From positions 1 to 48,256 of IMG/VR virus record IMGVR_UViG_3300027833_000012: 48,256 nt of DNA; one strand, given 5' to 3'. Positions 1,824 through 35,501 of this stretch are shown here, in pieces. The stretch's first letter is position 1. Each line of letters begins with the position of its first letter. Under the pieces are notes generated by a model. That model did no database searches, was not told the origin of the DNA, and saw only the letters and a program-made list of their open reading frames with translations. A program made the translations under genes and the position numbers. Source of the DNA: a virus (lineage: Duplodnaviria; Heunggongvirae; Uroviricota; Caudoviricetes).

Positions 1824-3476
1824 TTAATAGTTATTTTTATCTTTATTTGGGGCATATTTCTCTAATAACTCCAATCTTTTATTAAGAACCTTCTCACTAG
1901 CTGGGTAAAAATTATCACCTCTATTTAAACTCTTAGGCATAAGACTCATTTGCTTATTCTTTCTATCCCTTATTGTTAAGAAGTCATCGTCTTGACCTTC
2001 ACCGAATGGTTTATAAATGTTAGTACCATCAAAGAATGAAACCATAGCATCTTCACCATCTTCATAATCAAAAACAATTGTTGTTTTATTCTTAATAGCT
2101 TCTTCAGAACGTAACAATTTAAATGGTCCTGGTAATGTTGTTTTACCTAAAGTTTCTGAAAATTTAACAACACCAACATCTTCTGAACCCATAGCACATA
2201 AGGCATACTTACCTGATAAGTTATCTCTCTTAAGGTTGTTTCTTCCTCCACCACCTTGTCCGAATAATCCCCAAGCATATGGTGCGTAACCCTTTTCAAT
2301 CATGGCCATCATAATGTCCCACATGTTTTGGTGTGTCATACCATCACCCTCTATAAATCTAAGGGTTGTACCAAAATACCATGTCTTACCATTAATTACT
2401 TCACTAGTACAAAGCCCATTCTTTATAGCTAATTCTATTGTCCAAATAACCTGTTCCAATGCATCCCCAGAATCTGGTCTTGCCACTACAATTTTACCGT
2501 TATTTAACTCAACACTTTTTTGTGCTAAAGGAAGTAACATATTTTCTACAGCATAAAAGTAATCGTTACAGTCGGCTACCATAGAAATAAAAGAATTATC
2601 AGTACAAGAATTGTATATAGCTTGGTAACAGTCATTTTCAAATTCAAAACCTTGTACGTTTCTATGTGCTAAAGCATTTACTGAATTACCAACTGGGGTT
2701 TCACCAGAATTTTTCCAAGCTTGGTATGCACCAGAGCATGTGTCAGTTCCAGGGAATGTGTATAATTGTGCCTTACCCATTATTTCAGATTCTCTAGCAC
2801 AAATACCAGCTCTATCACCAAAGTCAGTTAACATAATTGAGGCTAGGAAAGTTGTTTCCTCATCACTTAAATTTGGATTAACCATGTTAACCATACTTTT
2901 TAATTTAAGTAACCAGTGCTCATTTTGAGTTATCTTTTCTGATACCGCCCAAGTTTGTAATAATTTAGATTCAAACCAAGCTGCTAATATACCCATTCCA
3001 TCAACATCACAAACTATTTGCATGTAAGGTTCATTTGGATACACAACAGAACCTTCTGGTAATGCTTTAATCTTAATTGGTGGACGACCATTAAATTCAT
3101 CTACCACTCTTCTCCATATATTTTCTGGGAATTCATACTCAGATAAGCCATTTGGACCTACTTTAAAGGTGGATAAGAATCTTTTGGTATCATCAATCTC
3201 TTGGTGAGTAATCGGCTCATAGAACAGTTCTTCTAGGATATCACCTAGACCACCAAAAATGATTCTATTATCACCCTCAGTGTAAATTGCAGAATCGATT
3301 GTGATTAATTGTTTTCTAAATACACAGTAATATGTTGACTTATTTTTAACTAATTCACTCTCAAATTTATTTGAACCAACTGTATATGCATCAGCAGTTA
3401 ACAATCTAGGTGTCTTATAAATTTTCTTATTAGGTAAAATAACTTCTCTTTTGATTTCCTTTACTTCTATACTCAT
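1824..3476 (-). CDS. nadV: nicotinamide phosphoribosyltransferase (NAMPT/NadV)
   Basis: LLTADAY, DFGDRAG, AHRNVQ, ARPDSGD, GQGGGG and LKRD motifs; adjacent to NMNAT-Nudix. Confidence 0.88.
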   Translation of the reverse strand: MSIEVKEIKREVILPNKKIYKTPRLLTADAYTVGSNKFESELVKNKSTYYCVFRKQLITIDSAIYTEGDNRIIFGGLGDILEELFYEPITHQEIDDTKRFLSTFKVGPNGLSEYEFPENIWRRVVDEFNGRPPIKIKALPEGSVVYPNEPYMQIVCDVDGMGILAAWFESKLLQTWAVSEKITQNEHWLLKLKSMVNMVNPNLSDEETTFLASIMLTDFGDRAGICARESEIMGKAQLYTFPGTDTCSGAYQAWKNSGETPVGNSVNALAHRNVQGFEFENDCYQAIYNSCTDNSFISMVADCNDYFYAVENMLLPLAQKSVELNNGKIVVARPDSGDALEQVIWTIELAIKNGLCTSEVINGKTWYFGTTLRFIEGDGMTHQNMWDIMMAMIEKGYAPYAWGLFGQGGGGRNNLKRDNLSGKYALCAMGSEDVGVVKFSETLGKTTLPGPFKLLRSEEAIKNKTTIVFDYEDGEDAMVSFFDGTNIYKPFGEGQDDDFLTIRDRKNKQMSLMPKSLNRGDNFYPASEKVLNKRLELLEKYAPNKDKNNY

Positions 3477-3498
3477 TTAATATCTTTTTTTGTTAATA

Positions 3499-3506
3499 CA
3501 AATATA
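3499..3506 (-). promoter_or_regulatory. Bacteroidota sigma-A type -7 element (TATATTTG), representative of about 27 similar sites
   Basis: TAnnTTTG on the minus strand just upstream of gene blocks; also at 5062, 6686, 7981, 9901, 10354, 16863, 18079, 18680, 25782, 28273, 30173, 31530, 33562, 39482, 42475, 44050 and 47528. Confidence 0.8.
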
Positions 3507-3530
3507 CATCTTTTATTTCAATTTTACAAA

Positions 3531-7111: not shown

Positions 7112-7308
7112 ATAAATTTATCACATAATTCATCTAAAGTGTTCTCTATTTCACTAATTTTACCTTTTAAATAACCCATATCGAAACCCCCATGATATGT
7201 GTATTTAGTTTCATTACCGTTATGTTTTGATTCTAGTAATTTTTTTTGCACAATTAATCTATTCAATCGCCTTTTAAGCTTCTCTGTGTTAATGGTTTTA
7301 TCCTTCAT
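7105..7308 (-). CDS. hypothetical protein
   Basis: 67-aa ORF in an overlapping gene chain. Confidence 0.6.
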   Translation of the reverse strand: MKDKTINTEKLKRRLNRLIVQKKLLESKHNGNETKYTYHGGFDMGYLKGKISEIENTLDELCDKFIC

Positions 7309-7462
7309 AAGTTGTATTTTTATCAGTTAATTTTTTGTATTCGTATTCCATTGATTCTAAACTACCAGTATCTATGGTGATATTATATTTAAAAATCCAC
7401 CAAGTAACTTCTTTTGTTAGATAAAATAAACCATTATCATACATTTTTATATTATAAACCAT
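7298..7462 (-). CDS. 54-aa hypothetical protein (not in ORF track)
   Basis: Manual translation MVYNIKMYDNGLFYLTKEVTWWIFKYNITIDTGSLESMEYEYKKLTDKNTTYEG fills the gap. Confidence 0.5.
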   Translation of the reverse strand: MVYNIKMYDNGLFYLTKEVTWWIFKYNITIDTGSLESMEYEYKKLTDKNTTYEG

Positions 7463-8807: not shown

Positions 8808-9374
8808 TTAATTTTTAAATTTATATTTTTTCTTAGTACCATCAGCCTTACTATAAGTAATACTGATAGGTTTTAATTCAATAACCTCATCATCAGTTAA
8901 GTCTCTAACGTAAGATTCACCCTTACCAGCCTTAACATATGCTATCGTTGCGTGTGCATGATACTCGTCGTAATCACTAGTATAAGGTAATGTCTTTAAC
9001 AAATCATTCATCTTAGTTAAAGATTCATCAACAATGTTAAATTTAACAACATCAAAACCTTTATCTTTATTGTCAAATATATCTATCTTATTTAACTTAA
9101 TTGTAGGTTGTGTTATCTTATCAATTATTTTTTCAACATCTGAATCTGGTACATCTGAATGTATACCATATAATAATGTTATATGTGGTTCATCTTCCCT
9201 TCCATAACCTGGGTCTTCTTTAGTACCCTTATATAATTCATCCTCACTTATTTCACCTTGAATGTTATCATAATCCGTCTTAGATAGTTTTAAATCAAGC
9301 ATAACACACCCATAGCTATAAGTGTTCCCCTTAACTTCATTTAAAATACCATTAAAAATATCACCTATCTTCAT
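8808..9374 (-). CDS. 2H phosphoesterase (Acb1/T4 57B-like or RNA cyclic phosphodiesterase)
   Basis: Two HxT motifs: EPHITLLYG and YHAHATIAY. Confidence 0.82.
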   Translation of the reverse strand: MKIGDIFNGILNEVKGNTYSYGCVMLDLKLSKTDYDNIQGEISEDELYKGTKEDPGYGREDEPHITLLYGIHSDVPDSDVEKIIDKITQPTIKLNKIDIFDNKDKGFDVVKFNIVDESLTKMNDLLKTLPYTSDYDEYHAHATIAYVKAGKGESYVRDLTDDEVIELKPISITYSKADGTKKKYKFKN

Positions 9375-9640
9375 ACAAACCCTAAGTTTATTAATAAATC
9401 TTTTATTTCACTTGGCTCATCAACATTACCTATTGTATTCTTAGCTAACTTTATCAAACTACTTATTGAGTCTTCTAAGTTTTTATCCGTTATATCCACA
9501 TTAGATAAATAGAACAAACCATTATCAGGTGTTATACTAACCTTATGAAACCTTTTACCGTTAATTCTTTTTTCTACTCTGAAGTTCAAATCAACTTTAA
9601 CAGTTAAAGTAACCCCACCGTATTTTATTTCCTTAATCAT
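9371..9640 (-). CDS. hypothetical protein
   Basis: 89-aa ORF. Confidence 0.6.
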   Translation of the reverse strand: MIKEIKYGGVTLTVKVDLNFRVEKRINGKRFHKVSITPDNGLFYLSNVDITDKNLEDSISSLIKLAKNTIGNVDEPSEIKDLLINLGFV

Positions 9641-18250: not shown

Positions 18251-18259
18251 TTGTTATAG

Positions 18260-18330
18260 AGCACAATGTGAGAATCAAACTCCGTCTTCTACTTGGAAGG
18301 TAGACGCTTTATCATTAAGCTACATCATGC
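18260..18330 (-). tRNA. tRNA-Gly(TCC)
   Basis: Cloverleaf, loop CTTCCAA, U73; T-loop TTTGATT divergent. Confidence 0.8.
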
Positions 18331-18409
18331 ATTGGTCTTTATGTAGGTGGTACCACCTTGTAGAGCCATAAAGAAACTTAACCTACTTTATCATATTGAA
18401 TTAATAAAA

Positions 18410-18661
18410 TTATTTATTTCTAAATTCTAACTCTTTTTTAATTTTTTCATATACTTCACAAGATTTTCTGTATTCCTGGATAAAAAAACCTCTTTCACAC
18501 CCTTTTAAAGGTAAATGTAACATACTACTATCAGAGAAGTTAATATCCTTTAACTTCTCTGATTTTATTTTTTTTAATTGTGTTTTATTAAATGTTGAAA
18601 TATCATTTAACTCAAAAGCTTCTAATAAATCATCTAAACTCATTTTACTGTAATTATTCAT
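18410..18661 (-). CDS. hypothetical protein inside the tRNA array, with its own TAnnTTTG promoter
   Basis: 83-aa ORF; promoter at 18680-18687. Confidence 0.6.
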   Translation of the reverse strand: MNNYSKMSLDDLLEAFELNDISTFNKTQLKKIKSEKLKDINFSDSSMLHLPLKGCERGFFIQEYRKSCEVYEKIKKELEFRNK

Positions 18662-18717
18662 ATCTTTATGTTTTAATTACAAATATACAAATTAATTATC
18701 ATAATTACAAATTATTG

Positions 18718-18786
18718 AGCGAGAAATGGGACTCGAACCCACAACCTTCTGATTGGCCAGACGCTCTACCATTGAGCTATTCTCGC
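18718..18786 (-). pseudogene. tRNA-Gly(GCC)-like gene with a 3-nt deletion in the anticodon arm
   Basis: Near copy of 18973..19044, but the arm reads TCTG-GCCAA-TCAGA instead of TCTGG-TTNCCAA-TCAGA. Confidence 0.6.
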
Positions 18787-18835
18787 AATTTATAGTCTTT
18801 CCTATTGTCACCATTTGAAGGAGTGGGTTTCTCCT

Positions 18836-18912
18836 TGGAGCACACAGACGGGTTCGAACCGACAACCTCCGCATTACAAGTGCGGGACTACTTCCACATG
18901 AGCTTTGTGTGC
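18836..18912 (-). tRNA. tRNA-Thr(TGT), CCA encoded
   Basis: CCGCA-CTTGTAA-TGCGG arm, GCACACA/TGTGTGC acceptor. Confidence 0.85.
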
Positions 18913-18972
18913 ATTTGTATGTCTTTACCTCAGTAACATACGTGAAAGATTTAATACTTCTTAACTACTCTG

Positions 18973-19044
18973 AGCGAGAAAGGAATTTCGAAATCCCGAC
19001 CTTCTGATTGGTAACCAGACGCTCTGCCTCTGAGCTATTCTCGC
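18973..19044 (-). tRNA. tRNA-Gly(ACC), A34 anticodon
   Basis: Gly-type body GCGAGAATAGCTCAG...TTCTCGC-U73; loop TTACCAA. Confidence 0.75.
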
Positions 19045-19094
19045 ATTTCTAATTCTACGCTCGTCCAAAGGAGTCTATGAATTAGTAACAGTCT

Positions 19095-19730
19095 TCACTC
19101 CTTTTTCATTTTTCGACCCAATCTCCAGCCTTCTGGAATTAAATCGCCTTTATTTATTTTCTTACTTTCAACTTCATTGGTAATCCAACACTTACCGAAT
19201 TGAGAATTATTTGACCCAACATTTTTAGACTTCCTCATCTTCTTTTTAGTTTCCTCACTATGTAATTTACCTTTAAATGTTGCTAATCTACCTTTTAAAG
19301 CTTTTTTAACTTTTTCTTTATATTTTGGGTCTTTATGCAAATTTTTAGTTATTTCACTTTTAATTTTCCTACCTTCATCACTTTTCCAAAATATATTACC
19401 AGCTTCAGAACATTTTTTCTGATGTTCTTCATCCCTAAAACCACCTTGACCACCTACTCTTAGATTCATACAGTCAACCTTTGCAATCTCGTTAAGATTA
19501 ACTATTTCTTCTTCTCTAGATTTTAAAATTTCTCTAGTTTCACAATACTCAAGTATTTCACTAATGAAATTATCTTTTCCATGTTTTCTAATAGCTAATT
19601 TAATTCTATTTCCACTACCTAAATAACCATCATCTAAGTTATCTGTACTATGCATCCCTATATAATATTTACCACTTAATACGTTTGTGGTTTTATATAT
19701 GAAGTGATACTTTTTTTCTTTTCTTGCCAT
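19095..19730 (-). mobile_element. free-standing Seg-like GIY-YIG homing endonuclease with NUMOD3-like motif, inserted in the tRNA array
   Basis: FIYKTTN...YYIGMH...YLGSG...AIRKHGKDNF..EILE; HSEETKKKMRKSK...NSQFG. Confidence 0.88.
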
Positions 19731-19789
19731 ATCTATCTTTTACAATAAATATGCAGAAAAACGTTAAAAGTACAAAAACGTGTCTAAAG

Positions 19790-19871
19790 TGGGCCCAGAG
19801 GGATTCGAACCCCCAATGTCTTTCGACCACAGATTTACAATCTGCTGAGCGACCAGTTGCTCAATGAACCC
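19790..19871 (-). tRNA. tRNA-Tyr(GTA)
   Basis: GCAGA-TTGTAAA-TCTGT arm, class II variable arm. Confidence 0.9.
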
Positions 19872-19882
19872 ATTTAATATTG

Positions 19883-19954
19883 AGCTGATATCCAAAATCG
19901 AATTGGAATTTCTACCATACCAAGGTAGCGTAATAGCCGTTATACTATACCAGC
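19883..19954 (-). tRNA. tRNA-Thr(GGT)
   Basis: CTACC-TTGGTAT-GGTAG arm. Confidence 0.85.
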
Positions 19955-19959
19955 ATTTG

Positions 19960-20030
19960 TACCCCCTAACGGTATTGAACCGATTTCCCCTATTTAAAAG
20001 ATAGGTGCTTCACCTTAAAGCTTAGAAGGC
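19960..20030 (-). tRNA. tRNA-Lys(TTT)
   Basis: CCTAT-CTTTTAA-ATAGG arm (U31-A39). Confidence 0.88.
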
Positions 20031-20036
20031 GTATTG

Positions 20037-20124
20037 TCCGAGAGGTGGGACTCGAACCCACGGTGGAGTCATTAACTCGTCTGGTTAAAAGCCAGGACCG
20101 TTCGCCAACTACGGATACTCTCGG
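20037..20124 (-). tRNA. tRNA-Lys(TTT) with long variable arm
   Basis: CTGG-CTTTTAA-CCAG arm followed by a GAGT-TAATG-ACTC variable hairpin; 88 nt. Confidence 0.78.
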
Positions 20125-20130
20125 ATATTG

Positions 20131-20212
20131 TGGGTCCAGAGGGATTCGAACCCCCAACGCCTTTCGGCCACAAATTTACAGTCTGCTGAGCGACCAGTTG
20201 CTCAATGAACCC
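20131..20212 (-). tRNA. tRNA-Tyr(GTA)
   Basis: Loop CTGTAAA; paralogue of 19790..19871. Confidence 0.9.
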
Positions 20213-20233
20213 ATTTATTTCACAAATTATTTG

Positions 20234-20304
20234 TCGATAGACCAGGAGTTAAACCTGGACCTACACCCCCAATGGATGTCGCACTGTCATTATACTATCT
20301 ATCG
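20234..20304 (-). tRNA. tRNA-like gene, undetermined (Pro-like C1-G72/A73; loop CATTGGG)
   Basis: Acceptor, D and T stems pair; A33 and T-loop TTTAACT are non-canonical. Confidence 0.5.
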
Positions 20305-20309
20305 AATTG

Positions 20310-20380
20310 TTACCCTCACGAGATTCGAACTCATACAACAAAAGTCAAAGTTTTGTATGCTACCATTACATCAGAGGGCA
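20310..20380 (-). tRNA. tRNA-Gln(TTG)
   Basis: CAAAA-CTTTGAC-TTTTG arm, U1-A72. Confidence 0.88.
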
Positions 20381-20386
20381 AAATAG

Positions 20387-20486
20387 AGTAGAAAGGGGGA
20401 TTCGAACCCGTAGTTATATTGAGTACTCTTTAACTACACCCACTTGGAACCTCGATGTTCCCGTGCTATCATTACACTATTTCTAC
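20387..20486 (-). tRNA. tRNA-like gene, undetermined (6-nt loop ATCGAG, very long variable arm)
   Basis: GTAGAAA/TTTCTAC acceptor, GGAAC/GTTCC stem, GTAGTTA/TAACTAC variable hairpin, GGTTCGAATCC T-arm. Confidence 0.5.
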
Positions 20487-20491
20487 ATTTG

Positions 20492-20561
20492 TCTAATGGG
20501 ACAGATTCGAACTGTCGTACTTCAGATACCAAATCTGACATGACCCTGGCTTCGCCACTAG
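20492..20561 (-). tRNA. tRNA-Pro(TGG), divergent D-arm
   Basis: TCAGA-TTTGGTA-TCTGA arm, C1-G72, A73. Confidence 0.72.
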
Positions 20562-20620
20562 ATAATTTTAATTCTACGCTTAAACTTCAAGATTCCTATG
20601 AATTAATAACAGTCTACTAG

Positions 20621-20695
20621 TCGAATAGAGAGGACTCGAACCTCCATGATGTCCTAGTCCCAAACTAGGCGACTTACCAATTAGTCCACTACTCG
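20621..20695 (-). tRNA. tRNA-Pro(TGG)
   Basis: CCTAG-TTTGGGA-CTAGG arm, C1-G72, A73. Confidence 0.9.
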
Positions 20696-20704
20696 AATTA
20701 TTTG

Positions 20705-20800
20705 TCGGGGGTATGGGATTCGAACCCATGGCAAATACGAACAGCGTACCCGCACTGGTTTCCAAGACCAGCCACTTCAACCTTACTCGTGCAACCCCCG
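20705..20800 (-). tRNA. tRNA-Pro(TGG) with long variable arm
   Basis: CTGGT-CTTGGAA-ACCAG arm, C1-G72/A73, ~25-nt variable hairpin GCGGGTACG...CGTATTTGC. Confidence 0.7.
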
Positions 20801-20890
20801 ATAATTACACTTCCACGTCATTGGTATAGTGCGAACCCAATTGTTATTTTATTATTCCAATATGTCAATGAACTACTTATTATTAAACGC

Positions 20891-20926
20891 AAAAAACCCA
20901 GTTAAAATTTTTATCTTAACTGGGCT
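20891..20926 (-). terminator. attenuator terminator of tRNA operon 1
   Basis: GCCCAGTTAA...TTAACTGGGT plus T-run; leader segment GACTGGGT (20998-21005) can pair with its 5' arm. Confidence 0.85.
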
Positions 20927-20958
20927 TCTTTATCGTATTTTTTTTTGGTTTAAATGAA

Positions 20959-21066
20959 TTAACCAATTAATTCATCACTTCCTTTTTTATACAACTCACC
21001 CAGTCTGCTCGGCTTTTGGCCTTGCGGATACTGTTTCCCTTGATATGTCGTTGTATAATTTTTCAT
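20959..21066 (-). CDS. leader peptide 1, MKNYTTTYQGKQYPQGQKPSRLGELYKKGSDELIG (35 aa)
   Basis: Lies between promoter 21112 and terminator 20891; codons 2-19 are 17/18 K/Y/T/Q/G/P, the tRNA species found downstream. Confidence 0.85.
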   Translation of the reverse strand: MKNYTTTYQGKQYPQGQKPSRLGELYKKGSDELIG

Positions 21067-21111
21067 CTTAATTTTTCTTTATGGGTTTATACCCTTTGTT
21101 AATATATATGA

Positions 21112-21119
21112 CAAAGATA
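21112..21119 (-). promoter_or_regulatory. TATCTTTG promoter of tRNA operon 1, with upstream TTGACAAA
   Basis: About 60 nt near-identical to the promoter at 35699. Confidence 0.82.
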
Positions 21120-21206
21120 CTAAAAGTTATCTAATTTGTCAAGTTTTTTTTAATTTATTTTTTAATTTATTTATAATTCACTGACTATCAGTTTATTATA
21201 TCTTTG

Positions 21207-21280
21207 TAGCGAGAGTCGGATTCGAACCGACGACCTCCAGATTATGAGCCTGGCGAGCTGACCTACTGCTCTATCTCGCA
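21207..21280 (-). tRNA. tRNA-Met(CAT), initiator-like
   Basis: Unpaired 1:72, fMet-type D-arm TAGAGCAG..GG..AGCTCG, loop CTCATAA. Confidence 0.85.
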
Positions 21281-21286
21281 ATTTAG

Positions 21287-21359
21287 TAGCGGGGGTAGGA
21301 TTCGAACCTACGACCTCCAGATTATGAGCCTGGCGAGCTAACCACTGCTCTACCCCGCA
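21287..21359 (-). tRNA. tRNA-Met(CAT), initiator-like
   Basis: Paralogue of 21207..21280. Confidence 0.85.
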
Positions 21360-21365
21360 ATTTTG

Positions 21366-21539
21366 TTGCCACGATGGGAATCGAACCCACTGCCTCTTCC
21401 TCCAACGGAAGCGAGCTTTGTATTTTTAAAGTTAGCTAAATTCAATTTAGTGATTTGCAACTCACCTCGTTTAAAAACTAACAGTTACTGAATACTTTGC
21501 AATTATATTCAGAGAAATACCCCAATGCTCCACATGACG
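21366..21539 (-). ncRNA. tRNA-Pro-like RNA with a ~110-nt structured insertion in the D-loop
   Basis: CGTCATG/CGTGGCA acceptor, GAGC...GCTC D-stem enclosing the insertion, CTTCC-GTTGGA-GGAAG arm, GTGGG-TTCGATT-CCCAT T-arm. Confidence 0.6.
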
Positions 21540-21550
21540 AATTTATTTAG

Positions 21551-21626
21551 CAGTAATAATCAGACTCGAACTGATACCTTGACAACCCATGTCGCCCTAT
21601 GCTATGACACACAACACCCTATTACT
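21551..21626 (-). tRNA. tRNA-like gene, undetermined (loop CATGGG)
   Basis: AGTAATA/TATTACT acceptor and canonical T-arm; anticodon loop not 7 nt. Confidence 0.5.
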
Positions 21627-21739
21627 AGTTTAGACAGCGGAGGAACATTTTAATTAAAGACTCCGATAGTTCTTTGTTTGTCTCTTATCTTTAATGTAGG
21701 GTCCGAGGACCATCGACTAACATTTAAGACGTATTCTTA

Positions 21740-21810
21740 GTAGAGTATACGGATTTGATACCATATTTCCAACTTTAATAGGTTGGCGACTTACTTAGTC
21801 GAGTACTCTA
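21740..21810 (-). tRNA. tRNA-like gene, undetermined (8-nt loop CTATTAAA)
   Basis: TAGAGTA/TACTCTA acceptor, GACT/AGTC D-stem, CCAAC/GTTGG stem, degenerate T-loop. Confidence 0.45.
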
Positions 21811-21814
21811 TTTC

Positions 21815-22600
21815 TTAGCTTGAGTGTTAAGCTTTGATGTTACCATTTTTAACTGTTTCCAGTCTATCACACACCTTCAATTTCTATCTGGTAGATAACA
21901 TTAAGTTGACCTCAGAGTGGTCATTACTCTTTTACATATCCTTATATAAACACTTTCGACACCCAGTCTCCTTGCGAGAGTTAAAAGGGGCTAACCTTCT
22001 ACTTATGACATCTAATTGTTGTTTTAACTTCAACCTTGAGAGTATCCATTATCTATATATTACAACAGAATAACTTAATTTTCAAGATATGTCTATCAGA
22101 ACTTTTTCTTACCAATGTTAATTTTTTAAACAAAATTTTATCTTAATAAGTTCCCTCACAGTTCAGAGTGTGTCTGATAGTTGACATTCGTGCTACCTTT
22201 TGAGTAGTTTAGAATACGACACTCCGATGTAATGTTTTACCATCACGTCAATTAAATTACTTCAAACATACGTGAGCCCTACCGAAGTAGGTAACCCACA
22301 GTTATCCCATAACCTTTCATGATGATTTCAGCTTAATATTTTTTAAATCTTCAGCCGAAATCTAACTACTTATTTATTGATTATTTCTAATCTCAAACCT
22401 CTGAGTTAAAGGTTAAGTGACTCCTAACAGTGTTATCTCGTCACCCATCGTAGCTTGCTTACCTGGATTATAAGCTCCCTCCGAAGAGTTAGCCTTATAA
22501 CGCAATAACACATCCACACTAAGCTTCACGTATTATCACTTTATCCCATCACTGGTTTATCCTTTTGTTACCCGAAGGTAACTGGAGCATAAGCACCCCA
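21815..22600 (-). ncRNA. large (~790 nt) structured non-coding RNA
   Basis: No minus-strand ORF in the ORF track, higher GC than flanks, UUCG and GNRA hairpins, 5'/3' long-range pairing, tandem promoters upstream. Confidence 0.7.
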
Positions 22601-22638
22601 ATATTTTCAATATTTTAATGAACTTTTTATTTCTCTTA

Positions 22639-22731
22639 CAAAGATACTAATTTTTTTATTAGTATGCAAGTTTTTTTTAAACTTTTTTTTTGTAATTTAA
22701 ATAACCTTTTTTTATTTCTTTTACAAAGATA
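22639..22731 (-). promoter_or_regulatory. tandem TATCTTTG promoters (22639-22646 and 22724-22731) for the ncRNA/tRNA-Met unit
   Basis: Two -7 boxes with upstream TTGCAT/TTGACA; boxA-like AGTTCATTAAAATATTG follows. Confidence 0.75.
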
Positions 22732-22771
22732 CTAAACTTTATCCGTTTTGTCAAGTTTTTTTTAAACTTTT

Positions 22772-23485
22772 TTACAAAATATTTTTAATATCCATTAATA
22801 TACCTCTTAATTCCCTTATTTTATCGATGTTTAAGGTATCTCTAAAGGCGTGTAATTCTTTAAACATCAAGTTATTATCTTCATCAAATAACTTTTTCCA
22901 ATCATTATAGACTCCTTGTAGTTCTGGTTTTTCTTTAACTAACCTTTCAAATCCTGGTACGTTAATTTCACCACCTCTAAATATTTCAGAGTTTTGAATT
23001 TTACTTTGGTCAATATTACCTTGACTATCCATAATATTTTTACTATCCATGAAAGCTTGTTCAACTTCTGATGGACTTAAGTTTGGGTCCATTAGGATTT
23101 CTTCTTGAAATTTGTTTAGAACTGGAGTTAGAGCTGAGTCACCTAGTACTGGTTTTATCAATTCTTCAAACGATTCTAATTTCTTATTAACTAGTTTTCT
23201 TTTTTTAATGAGTATCATATCTTGAGTTGTCTTTGTTATGATATCATCTATATGTTTTGCTAGTTGGTTGTTATAAAAATTCTTATGCCATTCTCTAAAG
23301 TTTGGTCCTAATTCATCTGATTTTTCATTCCAATCAAATTTATTAGTATAATTATCATATTCATCCAATGTACTCTTAATTTCATCTGGTAACTTTGTGA
23401 AATCAAATAAAGGTGCGTTATCATCTTCATTTAGTTTAATTCCAGAAAGTTTTTTAAACTCTCTTAATAATTTTCTCTTATCCAT
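22772..23485 (-). CDS. hypothetical protein with LLRE/LNE N-terminus (putative virion internal protein)
   Basis: MDKRKLLREFKKLSGIKLNED. Confidence 0.65.
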   Translation of the reverse strand: MDKRKLLREFKKLSGIKLNEDDNAPLFDFTKLPDEIKSTLDEYDNYTNKFDWNEKSDELGPNFREWHKNFYNNQLAKHIDDIITKTTQDMILIKKRKLVNKKLESFEELIKPVLGDSALTPVLNKFQEEILMDPNLSPSEVEQAFMDSKNIMDSQGNIDQSKIQNSEIFRGGEINVPGFERLVKEKPELQGVYNDWKKLFDEDNNLMFKELHAFRDTLNIDKIRELRGILMDIKNIL

Positions 23486-31578: not shown

Positions 31579-31583
31579 TCTAG

Positions 31584-31655
31584 CCGTCCATCTCAGAATC
31601 GAACTGAGAGCAACCGAGAGACAGTCGGTCATGTTAGCCATTACACCAATGGACG
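31584..31655 (-). tRNA. tRNA-Asp(GTC)
   Basis: ACCGA-CTGTCTC-TCGGT arm, G73. Confidence 0.88.
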
Positions 31656-31660
31656 GAATA

Positions 31661-31731
31661 GGAATATTGTAGGATTCGAACCTACGACTGCGGCTCTTTG
31701 GCCACCGTGCTAACCTCTACACTAAATATTC
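31661..31731 (-). tRNA. tRNA-like gene, undetermined (6-nt loop CAAAGA)
   Basis: Intact acceptor, D and T arms; GTGGC/GCCGC stem. Confidence 0.5.
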
Positions 31732-31828
31732 TAACTATCTACAAATGACTGCCATCATCCTTCAATAGAACAGCCTTGATACTTCATTTCAGTTGGCAGA
31801 CTTACTCAAATTTATCTCACTGTTTTTG

Positions 31829-31901
31829 TGGAGCTACTCGGAATCGAACCGAGGACTGGGATTTGCAAAACCCCTATTTTAGCCAATTAAACTATAACCC
31901 C
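31829..31901 (-). tRNA. tRNA-Ala(TGC)
   Basis: Loop TTTGCAA, G3:U70. Confidence 0.9.
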
Positions 31902-32043
31902 ATTTTTGTTAGATTTCGTACCGTTATCACACTTCAGTACAAGTCGCTATCAATTTATCTAACACACTTCCAATGCTACCTATCTAGGTTATTTAAACAC
32001 CTTTGCGTCCCTAGCGGTATTGTGTGACACCGTTTCTTTATTG

Positions 32044-32116
32044 TATTCCAGAAGGGAATCGAACCCTCATTTTGCGATAGAAAGTCGCACGTCCTAAGCC
32101 ATTAGACGACTGGAAC
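32044..32116 (-). tRNA. tRNA-Glu(TTC)
   Basis: TGCGA-CTTTCTA-TCGCA arm. Confidence 0.88.
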
Positions 32117-32209
32117 ATTTGTAATTCTTCCTTTACTTATATTAACACTCCGATTGAACTTAATCTATCCCAGGCGTTACTTCCTGGCTCGTCTGGTATT
32201 AATATCTAG

Positions 32210-32283
32210 CGGATGTCACGGGGGTCGAACCCGCAATCTTCTGAGTGACAGTCAGATATGTTACCAATCAACACCTCACATCC
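32210..32283 (-). tRNA. tRNA-Asp(GTC)
   Basis: TCTGA-CTGTCAC-TCAGA arm, G73. Confidence 0.88.
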
Positions 32284-32354
32284 GTTTTATAGTCTTTCCT
32301 AACAGTCATACTCAATACATTGGCTGGTTGTAAATCAGCTATACAATGCGTTTG

Positions 32355-32428
32355 TAACCCTAGTGGGAGTCGAACCCACGACCTTATCCTTGAAAGGGAT
32401 ACGACTTTTCCTATTCGTCCATAGGGTC
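32355..32428 (-). tRNA. tRNA-Glu(TTC)
   Basis: TATCC-CTTTCAA-GGATA arm. Confidence 0.88.
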
Positions 32429-32553
32429 ATATAATAATAGGTGGAAAGAGTTTTATTTTGCTCTTATTACATGCACGACTTTGTGCAAAACTCACAAATA
32501 CCGATGAATTTAATCATTATCACTTAAAGCGTTTCGATATCTATTATTTATTG

Positions 32554-32629
32554 CCGTCCTAGAGGGGTTCGAACCCTCGTTTTTGAGCAGAGACAGTGCA
32601 AATCCCCTTCCAATGGGGCTCATAAGACG
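32554..32629 (-). tRNA. tRNA-Asp(GTC), weak anticodon stem
   Basis: GCA-CTGTCTC-TGC arm, G73. Confidence 0.75.
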
Positions 32630-32633
32630 TTAG

Positions 32634-32706
32634 TGAGGGCAACTGGTATCGAACCAGTATCTTTCGGGCTTCAACCGAACGCATAGACCATCTTTGCTAT
32701 ACCCCC
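32634..32706 (-). tRNA. tRNA-Phe(GAA)
   Basis: TTCGG-TTGAAGC-CCGAA arm, A73. Confidence 0.88.
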
Positions 32707-32719
32707 TTGTTTGTTATGT

Positions 32720-32727
32720 CAAAGATA
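32720..32727 (-). promoter_or_regulatory. internal TATCTTTG promoter-like site just upstream of tRNA-Phe
   Basis: TAnnTTTG match 14 nt before the tRNA. Confidence 0.55.
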
Positions 32728-32763
32728 CAAAAAATAAATTTAACTACCAAACTTTTTTTTTAA

Positions 32764-33081
32764 TTAATAACCATTTTCTTTTTTCCATTGGTCATGCATA
32801 AAAACCACTTTACCATATGCTGAACCTTTACCTTCAGTAATGTTTATGAAACCATTTTCTTCAGTTATTACTGATTCTTCTGGTCTAACTGAACCTCTAT
32901 ACTTCTTCCCATAACTACCAGTTAGTTCTTTTGTGGCTGGGTCAATATCACCCCAAGTACTATGACCATTACCTATCCATTCTATATAGTATTTCTTTCC
33001 AGTTTCTGGGAAATACATTATTTCTCTTCCAGTTTCATCTCTATTAACTAAGAAATCTTTAATCACATTTTTCATAACCAT
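32764..33081 (-). CDS. hypothetical protein, first gene after attenuator 2
   Basis: 105-aa ORF (WGDIDPATKELTGSYGKKYRGSV). Confidence 0.75.
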   Translation of the reverse strand: MVMKNVIKDFLVNRDETGREIMYFPETGKKYYIEWIGNGHSTWGDIDPATKELTGSYGKKYRGSVRPEESVITEENGFINITEGKGSAYGKVVFMHDQWKKENGY

Positions 33082-33094
33082 TTAAATTTAAAGC

Positions 33095-33124
33095 AAAAAA
33101 AAACTCGAATCTTTCGAATCGAGC
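33095..33124 (-). terminator. attenuator terminator of tRNA operon 2
   Basis: GCTCGATTC-GAAA-GATTCGAGT plus T9; leader segment GGTCGAGT (33165-33172) can pair with its 5' arm. Confidence 0.8.
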
Positions 33125-33149
33125 TTGTTATTTAGTTTAGTTGTTACAC

Positions 33150-33242
33150 TTAACTTTTGACACTACTCGACCTCCCCAGGCTAAAATCAGCCTCGGCATT
33201 TGCTTCAAACGCAAAATCAAATATGTAGTTAAATGTATTCAT
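33150..33242 (-). CDS. leader peptide 2, MNTFNYIFDFAFEANAEADFSLGRSSSVKS (30 aa)
   Basis: Lies between promoter 33303 and terminator 33095; codons 4-20 are 13/17 F/D/A/E, the tRNA species found downstream. Confidence 0.85.
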   Translation of the reverse strand: MNTFNYIFDFAFEANAEADFSLGRSSSVKS

Positions 33243-33302
33243 CTTTTTTATTTTTATAATTTTAATCAGAAGTATCTTTTACCTCTTTATTTTAAATATA
33301 CA

Positions 33303-33310
33303 CAAATATA
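33303..33310 (-). promoter_or_regulatory. TATATTTG promoter of tRNA operon 2
   Basis: -7 box with upstream TTGCAC. Confidence 0.78.
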
Positions 33311-33339
33311 CTAAAAGTTTATTTATTGTGCAAGTTTTT

Positions 33340-33546
33340 TTATTTATTTATTTCTGCAACGTCAGAAATTTTAACTTTAAATCTAATTCTTTCACCAGAA
33401 TCAGTCTTTTCCATAATTAATATTGTTGGTGATAAATCAACTGTGTCAAAAGTTTTGAACGTATTTAAAATAGTAAAATCACTATCTTTTAATGTCTCAC
33501 TTAATTTCTCAAATATTTCACTATAAATTTTATTATTATCCATCAT
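33340..33546 (-). CDS. hypothetical protein
   Basis: 68-aa ORF after the promoter at 33562. Confidence 0.6.
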   Translation of the reverse strand: MMDNNKIYSEIFEKLSETLKDSDFTILNTFKTFDTVDLSPTILIMEKTDSGERIRFKVKISDVAEINK

Positions 33547-33609
33547 TATTTCATTACACTACAAATATACTAACAATTATTCTTAATGTCAAGTATATTT
33601 GTATTTATT

Positions 33610-34215
33610 TTAATTATTTATATAAAATATCTTGAAATACTTCTTAATATCCAAGTATAGTTCAGAATCATTCTTTAATTCTATCTCATCTCCATTATCG
33701 AAGAATGTATCCCATTCTTCAATAGATTTATTTTTACAACCTATATTTAAAGTTCCATTTTCTTTTTTTTCAAATGACCAGTAGGCTATTTTTAAATCTC
33801 CATTTTGAACGAAACCTTTTAGAGATGTAATCAAATTGTTTCTTAAAGCTAAAGTTCCATTTTGCACGAAACCTTTTAAAGATGTGATTCGATTGTTTGC
33901 TAAATTTAGGGTACCATTCTGCACGAAACCATCTAAGGATGTGATTTGGTTTTTACTTAAAGATAAAAAACCATTTTGCACAAAGCCATTTAAGGATGTG
34001 ATTTGATTACCACTTAAAAATAAATATCCATTTTGTACGAATCCATCTAAGGATGTGATTTGGTTGTTTCTTAAATCTAAAATACCATTTTGTACGAACC
34101 CATCTAAGGATGTGATATTTTTATTATCTAAATCTAAAATACCATTTTGATGCATCTTTCCATCAACCATCTTAAATGGTAAATCATTCTCTCTAATATA
34201 GTCACAAATATTCAT
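33610..34215 (-). CDS. leucine-rich repeat protein, 6 x 19-aa repeats
   Basis: Same caps and repeat unit as 13590..15326. Confidence 0.9.
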   Translation of the reverse strand: MNICDYIRENDLPFKMVDGKMHQNGILDLDNKNITSLDGFVQNGILDLRNNQITSLDGFVQNGYLFLSGNQITSLNGFVQNGFLSLSKNQITSLDGFVQNGTLNLANNRITSLKGFVQNGTLALRNNLITSLKGFVQNGDLKIAYWSFEKKENGTLNIGCKNKSIEEWDTFFDNGDEIELKNDSELYLDIKKYFKIFYINN

Positions 34216-34276
34216 AATATATTTATTTTAATTATTGTTGATTACAAATATACGAATAATATTTCAAACTACCAAA

Positions 34277-34444
34277 CTATTCTGAAATTAATTCTAATAA
34301 CATAGATAATGGAAATAATATTACATTAATTAAAAATATTATAATTAACTTAAATTTATTTATATTATTTTTATAATATAATTTAATTATTGTATCACCC
34401 CATAATATACCTATTATTACATATATTACTATATATTCTAACAT
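34277..34444 (-). CDS. 55-aa two-TM membrane peptide (not in ORF track)
   Basis: Manual translation MLEYIVIYVIIGILWGDTIIKLYYKNNINKFKLIIIFLINVILFPLSMLLELISE; TAATTTTG at 34475. Confidence 0.5.
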   Translation of the reverse strand: MLEYIVIYVIIGILWGDTIIKLYYKNNINKFKLIIIFLINVILFPLSMLLELISE

Positions 34445-34540
34445 TATTATATATTATTTTTATATTTCGTTAAGACAAAATTACTGATATTATTTTTAAT
34501 ATGCAACATTTTTTATAATTTATCATAAATATACATATAT

Positions 34541-34570
34541 AAAAAAAGATACCCGTAATGAATATCTTTT
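34541..34570 (-). terminator. terminator closing tRNA operon 3
   Basis: AAAGATA...TATCTTT hairpin plus T-run. Confidence 0.65.
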
Positions 34571-34579
34571 AAACTTAGT

Positions 34580-34658
34580 TGGTACCCCTGGTGGGAATCG
34601 AACCCACGAAACAATGGTTTCTAAGACCATTCTGCATTCCAACGTGCAGCACAAGGGC
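34580..34658 (-). tRNA. tRNA-Leu(TAG), short variable region, CCA encoded
   Basis: ATGGT-CTTAGAA-ACCAT arm, A73. Confidence 0.85.
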
Positions 34659-34805
34659 TTATTTTATTCTTATTGTAATATAATAAACTTTATCAACAAA
34701 ATCATGTTCCCATCTAACTATGTTAACCCTTTTTTCCCATTCCTTGGTCCTAAATTTAGATTCTGACCAATTCTCTTCTTTTACAGTAAATACATGTGTT
34801 TTCAT
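34659..34805 (-). CDS. 48-aa hypothetical protein within the tRNA array (not in ORF track)
   Basis: Manual translation MKTHVFTVKEENWSESKFRTKEWEKRVNIVRWEHDFVDKVYYITIRIK exactly fills the spacer. Confidence 0.55.
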   Translation of the reverse strand: MKTHVFTVKEENWSESKFRTKEWEKRVNIVRWEHDFVDKVYYITIRIK

Positions 34806-34825
34806 TTCAAATTATTATATATTAG

Positions 34826-34901
34826 TACCCGAAGTGGGAATCGAACCCACGAAACGACAGAGTTTAAGTCTGTTGTGCATTCCAACGTGCACCATTCGGG
34901 C
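34826..34901 (-). tRNA. tRNA-Leu(TAA), short variable region
   Basis: ACAGA-CTTAAAC-TCTGT arm; identical to 35067..35142. Confidence 0.85.
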
Positions 34902-34906
34902 AATTG

Positions 34907-34977
34907 TAGCTTCAGATGGAATCGAACCATCGCCCCTTGCATGTAAAACAAGTACGCTCCCATTACGCCATGAAGCC
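34907..34977 (-). tRNA. tRNA-Val(TAC)
   Basis: CTTGT-TTTACAT-GCAAG arm. Confidence 0.88.
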
Positions 34978-34983
34978 AATTAG

Positions 34984-35057
34984 TACCCCTACCTGGAATC
35001 GAACCAGGGACTTATTGCTTGTAAAACAATCGCTCTGAACCACTGAGCTATAGAGGT
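34984..35057 (-). tRNA. tRNA-Val(TAC)
   Basis: ATTGT-TTTACAA-GCAAT arm. Confidence 0.88.
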
Positions 35058-35066
35058 TTATATTAG

Positions 35067-35142
35067 TACCCGAAGTGGGAATCGAACCCACGAAACGACA
35101 GAGTTTAAGTCTGTTGTGCATTCCAACGTGCACCATTCGGGC
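35067..35142 (-). tRNA. tRNA-Leu(TAA), short variable region
   Basis: Identical copy of 34826..34901. Confidence 0.85.
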
Positions 35143-35148
35143 AATTAA

Positions 35149-35409
35149 TTAAATGGTTTCCCACCTAATCATATCATCTGAGTTATCACCATCAAGAGCT
35201 TTTATCGCCTTTCTAATGTATCTCATAAAGATAGATGCTTTATCTTCTAATTCAAAGGTAGCATTACCTACTTCATTGTTATCTGTAACGTCAATAGGGA
35301 AGGTGTAAAGCGTCTTATCTACTAATACGGTATAATATAACCTACCATTCTTACAATAAGCTAATTTAGCTTTATTTCCCTTTACAATTTCAATCATTTT
35401 ATGTTTCAT
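35149..35409 (-). CDS. hypothetical protein within the attenuated tRNA array
   Basis: 86-aa ORF (YTFPIDV...GNATFELEDKASIFMRYIRKAI). Confidence 0.72.
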   Translation of the reverse strand: MKHKMIEIVKGNKAKLAYCKNGRLYYTVLVDKTLYTFPIDVTDNNEVGNATFELEDKASIFMRYIRKAIKALDGDNSDDMIRWETI

Positions 35410-35428
35410 AACTTATAATTTATATTAG

Positions 35429-35501
35429 AGTCCCTAATCAGATTCGAACTGATACCTTACGGGTTGCAACCGCACGCCTTTGCCATTTTGACTATAGGGA
35501 C
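35429..35501 (-). tRNA. tRNA-Cys(GCA)
   Basis: TGCGG-TTGCAAC-CCGTA arm, U73. Confidence 0.88.

Follow-up and report, generated by a model that had tools for sequence, protein, structure and literature searches.

A divergent GOLLD RNA below the curated family threshold, encoded beside the tRNA genes of an uncultured AT-rich phage

Results

A structured, non-coding locus ahead of two tRNA-Met genes

The window, by which we mean the whole stretch of 48,256 nucleotides that was analysed (positions 1 to 48,256 of the IMG/VR record IMGVR_UViG_3300027833_000012), carries all its genes, together with 28 tRNA genes, on the minus strand. At 22606-21817 (minus), about 460 nt upstream of two tRNA-Met genes, lies an ORF-free and strongly structured RNA of approximately 790 nt, which is present as a single copy within the 187-kb virus record. 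A first-pass annotation, made from the letters of this DNA, had described a stretch without any coding ORF on the sense strand, and indeed each of the six frames contains between 12 and 31 stops. The one stretch that stays open for 80 aa runs antisense and is shortened to 54 aa in L001, an IMG/VR locus that is 95% identical to the window from the promoters to 21737. Within the region the GC content reaches about 0.38, the background being about 0.29. The minus strand folds at -199.8 kcal/mol (z -4.5), a value that none of 20 shuffles equalled; the fold of the plus strand is unexceptional (z -1.7). The five hairpins named in the annotation are all found in the minus-strand sequence:

22582-22567, minus: hairpin GTTACC-TTCG-GGTAAC, the UUCG hairpin of the 5′ domain (from the sequence)
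22500-22468, minus: hairpin TTATAAG..CTC-TTCG-GAG..CTTATAA (from the sequence)
22291-22278, minus: hairpin CCTAC-TTCG-GTAGG (from the sequence)
21980-21968, minus: hairpin CTC-GCAA-GGAG (from the sequence)
within 21864-21851, minus: hairpin CTG-GAAA-CAG (from the sequence)

The closing helix that had also been proposed, in which AGCTTAGTG (22525-22517) would pair with CACTCAAGCT at the 3′ end, found no support. Its 5′ arm lies inside an insertion present only in the window and L001, with a 1-nt deletion in the latter, and its 3′ arm instead forms a local, covarying hairpin, P27.

Assignment to the GOLLD family

GOLLD RNAs are encoded by phages and prophages near tRNA islands; they are about 800 nt long, and their 5′ domain is variable, their 3′ domain universally conserved and their linker disordered (PMC12286853; PMC12990946; PMC5737381). 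The corresponding Rfam model, RF02032, has 416 positions and covers the conserved 3′ domain. In a permissive Rfam cmscan of 21000-23000, this model matched 22227-21817 over positions 1-416 of its 416, untruncated, with 57.7 bits (E 6.7e-14), the score that is left after a composition correction of 24.9 bits. The gathering cut-off of the family is 150 bits and the RNA falls far below it, so that a default scan of the window lists tRNAs only. Neither strand of 21000-23000 was matched at E up to 10 by the models for ROOL, OLE, HEARO and group I/II introns. The cmscan against Rfam, put forward in the annotation as the deciding check, thus pointed to GOLLD, and the suspicion that this was a large ornate non-coding RNA of the GOLLD or ROOL kind beside a phage tRNA cluster is borne out. 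The suggestion that the family might be new gives way to that of a divergent GOLLD, in view of the full-length match, the intermediate relatives and the covarying GOLLD-derived helices.

A search of the whole record of the window with RF02032 returned no match, although cmscan of the 2-kb stretch does: in long inputs the weak GOLLD match is lost to the speed filters, and the same is true of L001, which scores 56.6 bits with the GOLLD model. Blastn of the region against 50,697 phage records gave nothing, and nhmmer with either domain gave no match at E up to 10 among loci that included canonical GOLLDs.

With the Rfam model, five canonical GOLLD loci scored 302, 293, 241, 226 and 180 bits. Clade members, all matched over the full length (E 5e-30 to 2.5e-12), scored 117, 115, 108, 102, 100, 97, 84 and 58 bits, and the gap between the window (58) and the canonical RNAs (180-302) is thereby filled. 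The match is significant and runs end to end in L001, in the lineages L150 and L157, and in seven clade loci, as it does in the window. In the other direction, two models built from the window and L001 only, R1 (P22-P27) and R2 (P17-P21), gave no match to canonical GOLLDs. A clade model, R3, run with the filters off, placed its best match exactly on the GOLLD 3′ end in four of eight canonical loci (L025, L019, L030 and L017), with E values of 0.06-0.7 only, and missed L027, L012, L024 and L130. We assign the RNA to GOLLD on the strength of its architecture and of transitive similarity, the curated threshold not being reached; the homology appears real but remote.

Structure and covariation of the 3′ domain

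The RNA has the two-domain layout of a GOLLD, with a 5′ domain of about 373 nt and a 3′ domain of 411 nt, the latter comprising the P13/P14 hairpin (65 nt), an A/U linker (52 nt) and a core (294 nt) with the long-range helix P17, P18 to P21a/b, the P22 pseudoknot, P23 to P26 and P27. The long-range helices were not recovered when RNAalifold was run de novo on the two near-identical copies, and the structure was therefore taken from the Rfam alignment, its helices transferred onto the window, and then tested. Its elements are the following:

22163-22227, minus: P13/P14 hairpin, with the invariant loop UCAAAAG at 22203-22197 (Rfam positions 1-62)
22111-22162, minus: J13/15 linker, variable and A/U-rich, without an embedded tRNA (the unstructured linker of Rfam)
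22098-22110, minus: junction motif AAGAAAAAGUUCU, canonical form AAGCAAAAGUCU (search pattern for L150, L153 and L157)
21934-22092, minus: core within the long-range helix P17, 22092-22084 with 21942-21934 (R2 and covariation)
22069-22052 and 22051-22025, minus: core hairpins (R2 and covariation)
22024-22020 with 21952-21948, minus: core junction stem (R2 and covariation)
22012-22007 with 21963-21958, minus: P21 stem (R2 and covariation)
22000-21983, minus: P21a (R2 and covariation)
21980-21968, minus: P21b, loop CGCAA (R2 and covariation)
21907-21930, minus: J17/22 and hairpin P22, the latter at 21923-21907 (from the sequence)
21899-21894 with 21844-21839, minus: P23 (R1 and covariation)
21893-21872, minus: P24 (R1 and covariation)
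inside the P23 domain 21839-21899, minus: invariant junction GUGUGUGA (R1 and covariation)
21864-21851, minus: P26, GAAA loop (R1 and covariation)
21817-21833, minus: P27, the 3′-terminal hairpin, with the invariant loop core CACUCA (end of the Rfam match)

All 19 pairs of P13/P14 form in the window, and this hairpin has undergone many compensatory changes in the clade (alignment columns 424-489). The linker that follows, J13/15, differs in length and in sequence among relatives. Comparison within the clade showed that the hairpin treated by cmscan as an insertion is P21a, so that P21a and P21b are both present. Against L001, the core shows nine differences, all of them located in loops or preserving a pair.

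R1 recovered 24 further loci at the expected coordinates (E 8e-12 to 0.2), and R2 recovered 27 further clade loci (E 1e-25 to 0.4) plus 51 metagenome loci. For P22-P27, 92.4% of the cells are paired, against 62.8% in shuffles, with a covariation score of 0.80 against 0.23 in shuffles and at most 0.15 when the partners were slid; 22 of the 27 pairs have changed on both sides. The values for P17-P21 are similar: 91.7% of cells paired against 67.4%, a score of 0.73 against 0.25 in shuffles and at most 0.16 with partners slid, and changes on both sides in 37 of 42 pairs. Within the first set, P23 is 99% paired and its six pairs have all changed on both sides; in P27, three of five have done so in the clade. 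The comparison with related phages that the annotation had called for thus revealed compensatory changes in 59 of the 69 pairs of the GOLLD-derived helices taken together, in alignments that were fitted to the tested structure, which favours that structure; the margin is large. The helices are maintained by compensatory changes in the relatives.

The L22-J17/22 pseudoknot, described for the env-38 GOLLD (PMC12286853), is not scored by the GOLLD covariance model. In the window, AGAGU (21930-21926) is complementary to the loop ACUCU (21918-21914). The complementarity is kept in L150 (5 bp) and L157 (4 bp) and absent in L153, and the pseudoknot covaries in the canonical L027 (GAGU/ACUC) and L017 (AAGG/CCUU). 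For the L20-J13/15 kissing loop, a comparison of the last 22 nt of J13/15 with the core yielded no covarying antiparallel run of columns, the variable part of the linker being unalignable.

The 5′ domain

The upstream half of the RNA holds the following features, besides the UUCG hairpin listed above:

22228-22600, minus: GOLLD 5′ domain, about 373 nt (fold z -4.9, RNAalifold)
22600-22583, minus: first hairpin of the 5′ domain (shared with canonical L027 and L012)
5′ domain, minus: motif GAUAAACCAGUGAUGGGAUAAAG, with CCAGUGAUGG at 22555-22546 (exact in viral and metagenome contigs)
22396-22375, minus: GAAA-loop hairpin inside UUGAG...CAAUA (5′ domain)

Folded alone, the 5′ domain was equalled by none of 100 shuffles (z -4.9). 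RNAalifold on plain MAFFT alignments, to which no structure was given, supported the P13/P14 hairpin and a conserved fold of the 5′ domain, with 82 pairs, 63 of them compensatory, for the clade, and 84 pairs, 35 of them compensatory, for the subgroup of the window. In the canonical L027, L012 and L025, CCAGYGATGG occurs about 300 nt ahead of the 3′ domain, at the place of the 5′ motif of the clade, and the order of leader, first hairpin and motif is common to the window RNA and to the canonical L027 and L012. The leader, the first hairpin and CCAGYGAUGG are all that the 5′ domains of L027, L012 and L025 have in common with it, the remainder being unalignable; the 5′ domain of GOLLD is known to be variable (PMC12286853).

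Relatives of the RNA

The canonical junction pattern was used to fetch accepted GOLLDs. The window version of the junction, AAAAGTTCT ... GAAAA ... GTTAT, used as a pattern, led to the lineages L150, L153 and L157, which align with the window over the whole 700-795 nt, promoters and leader included. Two other patterns were discarded: the first one, directed at the 3′ end, gave chance matches only, and a relaxed junction pattern gave mostly coding sequence among the matches listed. The 5′-domain motif ATAAWCCAGTRATGGNATAAAG occurs exactly in at least 32 viral and at least 99 metagenome contigs, and every contig with this motif, among those scored with the Rfam model, falls below the cut-off. 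The 26 alignable sequences (25 from viral contigs and the window) form 18 clusters at about 88% identity. L150 belongs to the window's own subgroup, with 62% identity and 97 bits. When one genome per bacterial or archaeal species was searched for the 5′ motif, it was found in a single contig, from an alphaproteobacterial MAG (L192), which R2 matches too (78.9 bits, E 3.1e-11).

An additional conserved 5′ extension, located about 100 nt upstream of the 5′ motif, is found in most of the other lineages of the clade and is lacking in the subgroup of the window; it contains GTTGTTACCCTCAGAGTTGAAATACTCATGGTGTGTGCGTTAAGC in L165, L167, L169, L172-L174, L177, L184, L188 and L191.

Synteny through the upstream 237-aa protein (22772-23485, minus), which belongs to no Pfam family, did not lead to the RNA: homologues 40-59% identical to it precede a gp25-like baseplate gene. 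In L002 and L004-L007 the homologues lie between ribonucleotide reductase and the gp25-like baseplate gene, and the window has the GOLLD and tRNA block there instead, so that the RNA and tRNA block is a variable insert.

Promoters, leader and transcription unit

Tandem promoters and a boxA-like sequence had been noted ahead of the RNA, and they were found, the boxA-like motif being kept in all four lineages of the subgroup:

22724-22754, minus: upstream promoter P1, TTG at 22754-22752 and TATCTTTG at 22731-22724, of the TAnnTTTG type (promoter scan)
22639-22669, minus: downstream promoter P2, TTG at 22669-22667 and TATCTTTG at 22646-22639 (from the sequence)
22613-22623, minus: boxA-like leader motif GTTCATTAAAA (its only minus-strand copy in the window)

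Both promoter copies sit inside an 85-nt tandem repeat, each with a TTG, about 20 nt and then TAGTATCTTTG. This box, which we take to be the TAnnTTTG type known in Bacteroidota, occurs 13 times in the window, always on the minus strand, against 2.2 copies expected; two boxes of this kind precede the RNA of L150 as well. Transcription from P2 would start near 22634. The leader motif GTTCATTAAAA resembles what we presume to be its counterpart, boxA, the antitermination signal of rRNA operons, and by analogy it may have an antitermination role. In the four subgroup lineages it stands, as GTTC(A/T)TTAAA, at a fixed distance before the first hairpin, and GTTCTTTGAA occupies the corresponding place in the leaders of the canonical GOLLDs L027 and L012; in the other clade lineages examined, the leaders lack the boxA-like motif. 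The next promoter is at about 21142, and up to that point no terminator is predicted, so the RNA is probably co-transcribed with three tRNA-like elements and the two tRNA-Met genes.

The 3′ end and its surroundings

The first of the tRNA-like elements lies immediately downstream of the RNA:

21740-21810, minus: tRNA-like cloverleaf, 6 nt after the end of the RNA (position and conservation)

Its acceptor stem is 7 bp long (TAGAGTA/TACTCTA), D and T arms are present, and the anticodon loop reads as 8 nt; neither ARAGORN nor the Rfam tRNA model at E up to 10 called the element (21810-21740). The element is 95% conserved in L001. At the same spacing from the RNA end, the acceptor is perfect and covarying in L150 (TGGAAGT/ACTTCCA) and L157 (TTGAACT/AGTTCAA). 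The cloverleaf is probably a processing handle, at which a cut by RNase P would set the 3′ end of the RNA. In L153 no tRNA follows, and an intrinsic terminator begins just past the homologous RNA end.

Several ribozymes were seen around the RNAs of other lineages. In L165, a pistol ribozyme (3451-3512, minus; 56.5 bits, above the cut-off) lies 5 nt past the GOLLD 3′ end, and in the L172 group a twister-P1-like match (L172:5001-5052, minus; 56.8 bits, below the cut-off) lies 2 nt past it. The pistol of L164 (4605-4666, plus) lies about 280 nt downstream of the GOLLD, and a device at the 3′ end is thus not universal; L178 has a hatchet (9177-9379, plus) about 760 nt upstream of the RNA.

The window also contains two more tRNA-like elements, both rejected by tRNA finders, between the GOLLD unit and tRNA-Met (21360-21740, minus). 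One is near 21625-21551. The other, at 21539-21366, carries an insert of about 110-140 nt that interrupts its D stem (GAGC/GCTC); at its 3′ end there is a weak match to the 3′ end of tmRNA (21375-21389, E 0.029). L001 is without this 21360-21740 stretch and goes directly to a tRNA. Elsewhere in the window, pairs of tRNAs with the same anticodon (Met, Pro, Gln, Tyr, Lys, Val, Leu-UAA, Asp and Glu) occur across 18259-21359 and 31583-35501 (minus), and some have one unusually long partner (Pro, 97 nt; Lys, 89 nt). Among other loci, the canonical GOLLD L017 (226 bits) has a tRNA gene within its J13/15 linker (7252-7324, minus), as reported for Mycolicibacterium GOLLDs, and about 530 nt downstream of the GOLLD in the clade contig L179, a tmRNA (2409-2847, minus; 70.7 bits) stands within a dense array of tRNAs.

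Discussion

Taken as a whole, the region 22606-21817 (minus) is very probably a GOLLD of a divergent clade, carried by an uncultured AT-rich giant phage, which would be processed and cage-forming. GOLLD RNA was reportedly described by Weinberg and colleagues in 2009. The window RNA shares with the family a length of about 790 nt, a variable 5′ domain and a conserved 3′ domain of about 410 nt, the UCAAAAG loop of P13/P14, the A/U-rich linker, the long-range P17, P21a and P21b with its CGCAA loop, the L22-J17/22 pseudoknot, the P23-P26 domain and a terminal hairpin with a CUCA loop. It is likewise phage-borne, located beside tRNA genes and provided with the 5′ motif CCAGYGAUGG. The differences are nonetheless considerable. 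The junction is AAGAAAAAGUUCU in the window and AAGCAAAAGUCU in the canonical form, L26 is a GAAA tetraloop where canonical GOLLDs have a 9-nt A-rich loop, and the GAGUA that precedes the 3′ strand of P17 is not kept. Moreover, the window RNA is very AT-rich (about 33% GC), and its 5′ domain is about 50 nt shorter than that of env-38.

Could these differences mean that we are dealing with a separate new family of large phage RNAs, GOLLD-like by convergence or by very remote ancestry? The score of 57.7 bits is sub-threshold, like those of the entire clade, which stays under the Rfam cut-off; there is no sequence-level similarity to canonical GOLLDs, which the window-derived models do not match, and the L26 and J13/15 motif are unlike the canonical forms. 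However, matches across the clade are full-length, with E values of 1e-12 to 1e-30, and the scores are graded continuously up to those of the canonical GOLLDs. The UCAAAAG and CGCAA loops, the pseudoknot, the CUCA terminal loop, the 5′ motif and the leader are all in common, and the clade model falls exactly on canonical 3′ ends. We consider a separate family improbable.

The position of the RNA at the head of a tRNA unit raises another question, namely whether it is a giant leader or processing scaffold that acts only in cis on the tRNA operon, and not a free-standing RNA. The boxA-like motif and the tandem promoters do resemble an rRNA operon leader, and the stretch from the RNA to the tRNA-like and tRNA-Met genes has no predicted terminator. 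Yet the homologue in L153 is directly followed by its own intrinsic terminator, with no tRNA, and canonical GOLLDs are found upstream or downstream of tRNAs, or with a tRNA embedded in the linker. In addition, the solved GOLLDs are stable RNA-only particles (PMC12286853). A role of this kind alone is highly improbable. As for a decaying remnant or an overlooked protein-coding gene, for which the 80-aa antisense open stretch might be invoked, this reading is already refuted, since L001, with its 95% identity, has this frame interrupted, 12-31 stops occur in each frame, helix substitutions among relatives are compensatory and the promoters are conserved.

We thus return to the divergent GOLLD and to the way in which it may be produced. 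Two tandem Bacteroidota-type promoters would drive the RNA as the first gene of a non-coding unit, in which the boxA-like leader would be followed by the GOLLD, the three tRNA-like elements and the two tRNA-Met genes. An RNase P cut at the tRNA-like element 6 nt downstream would release the 3′ end, and the processed RNA, together with copies of itself, would form a hollow RNA cage during infection. Cryo-EM has shown the env-38 GOLLD to be a 14-mer (PMC12286853), and the Streptococcus agalactiae (Sag) GOLLD, as reviewed, to be a 12-mer (PMC12990946). By analogy with these two solved cages, self-assembly into a hollow cage is the most likely behaviour of the window RNA. As to what such a cage might do, the constant association with tRNA genes suggests a part in tRNA supply or in translation. 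ROOL (RF03087), another large ornate phage-associated RNA found near tRNAs, also forms RNA-only cages; its sequence and secondary structure are unrelated, and its model gave no match at E up to 10.

Two known systems offer parallels for the ends of the RNA. Leaders of rRNA operons carry boxA and undergo antitermination by NusB/NusE. The window resembles them in having tandem promoters and then a motif like GCUCUUUAACAA (GUUCAUUAAAA in the window, GUUCUUUAAAA in L150 and L157), placed ahead of a long untranslated structured RNA with tRNAs; an action of Nus factors here is at most predicted. At the other end, mascRNA of MALAT1 and its MEN-beta equivalent provide cases in which a tRNA-like element forms the 3′ end of an RNA. 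Here too, a long non-coding RNA has a non-decoding cloverleaf immediately after its 3′ end, and an RNase P cut would make the mature end. The known case is eukaryotic, whereas cleavage in the window is deduced from position and conservation.

A more tentative proposal, which we consider less likely than not, may be added. The cage RNA of the subgroup might be made in the manner of an rRNA, from strong tandem promoters and through an antitermination leader of the boxA type, with a tRNA-like RNase P handle that cuts the exact 3′ end needed for assembly; the tRNA mimics could then be cargo or clients of the cage. Other lineages appear to use a different device at the same 3′ position, a pistol in L165, a twister-like element in the L172 group and an intrinsic terminator in L153.

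In conclusion, the window RNA is a member of a known family, and of a divergent clade which Rfam under-detects. Very few natural RNAs are known to build cages free of protein, and GOLLD is among them; as a sizeable clade lies below the curated threshold, surveys that rely on this threshold under-count the family. The clade supplies fresh and diverse sequences for covariation analysis and for testing which of the cage contacts are essential, for example through the GAAA tetraloop that takes the place of the canonical L26, or through the co-occurrence of P21a and P21b. Finally, the conserved boxA-like leader and the devices located exactly at the 3′ end suggest testable rules for the production of these RNAs.
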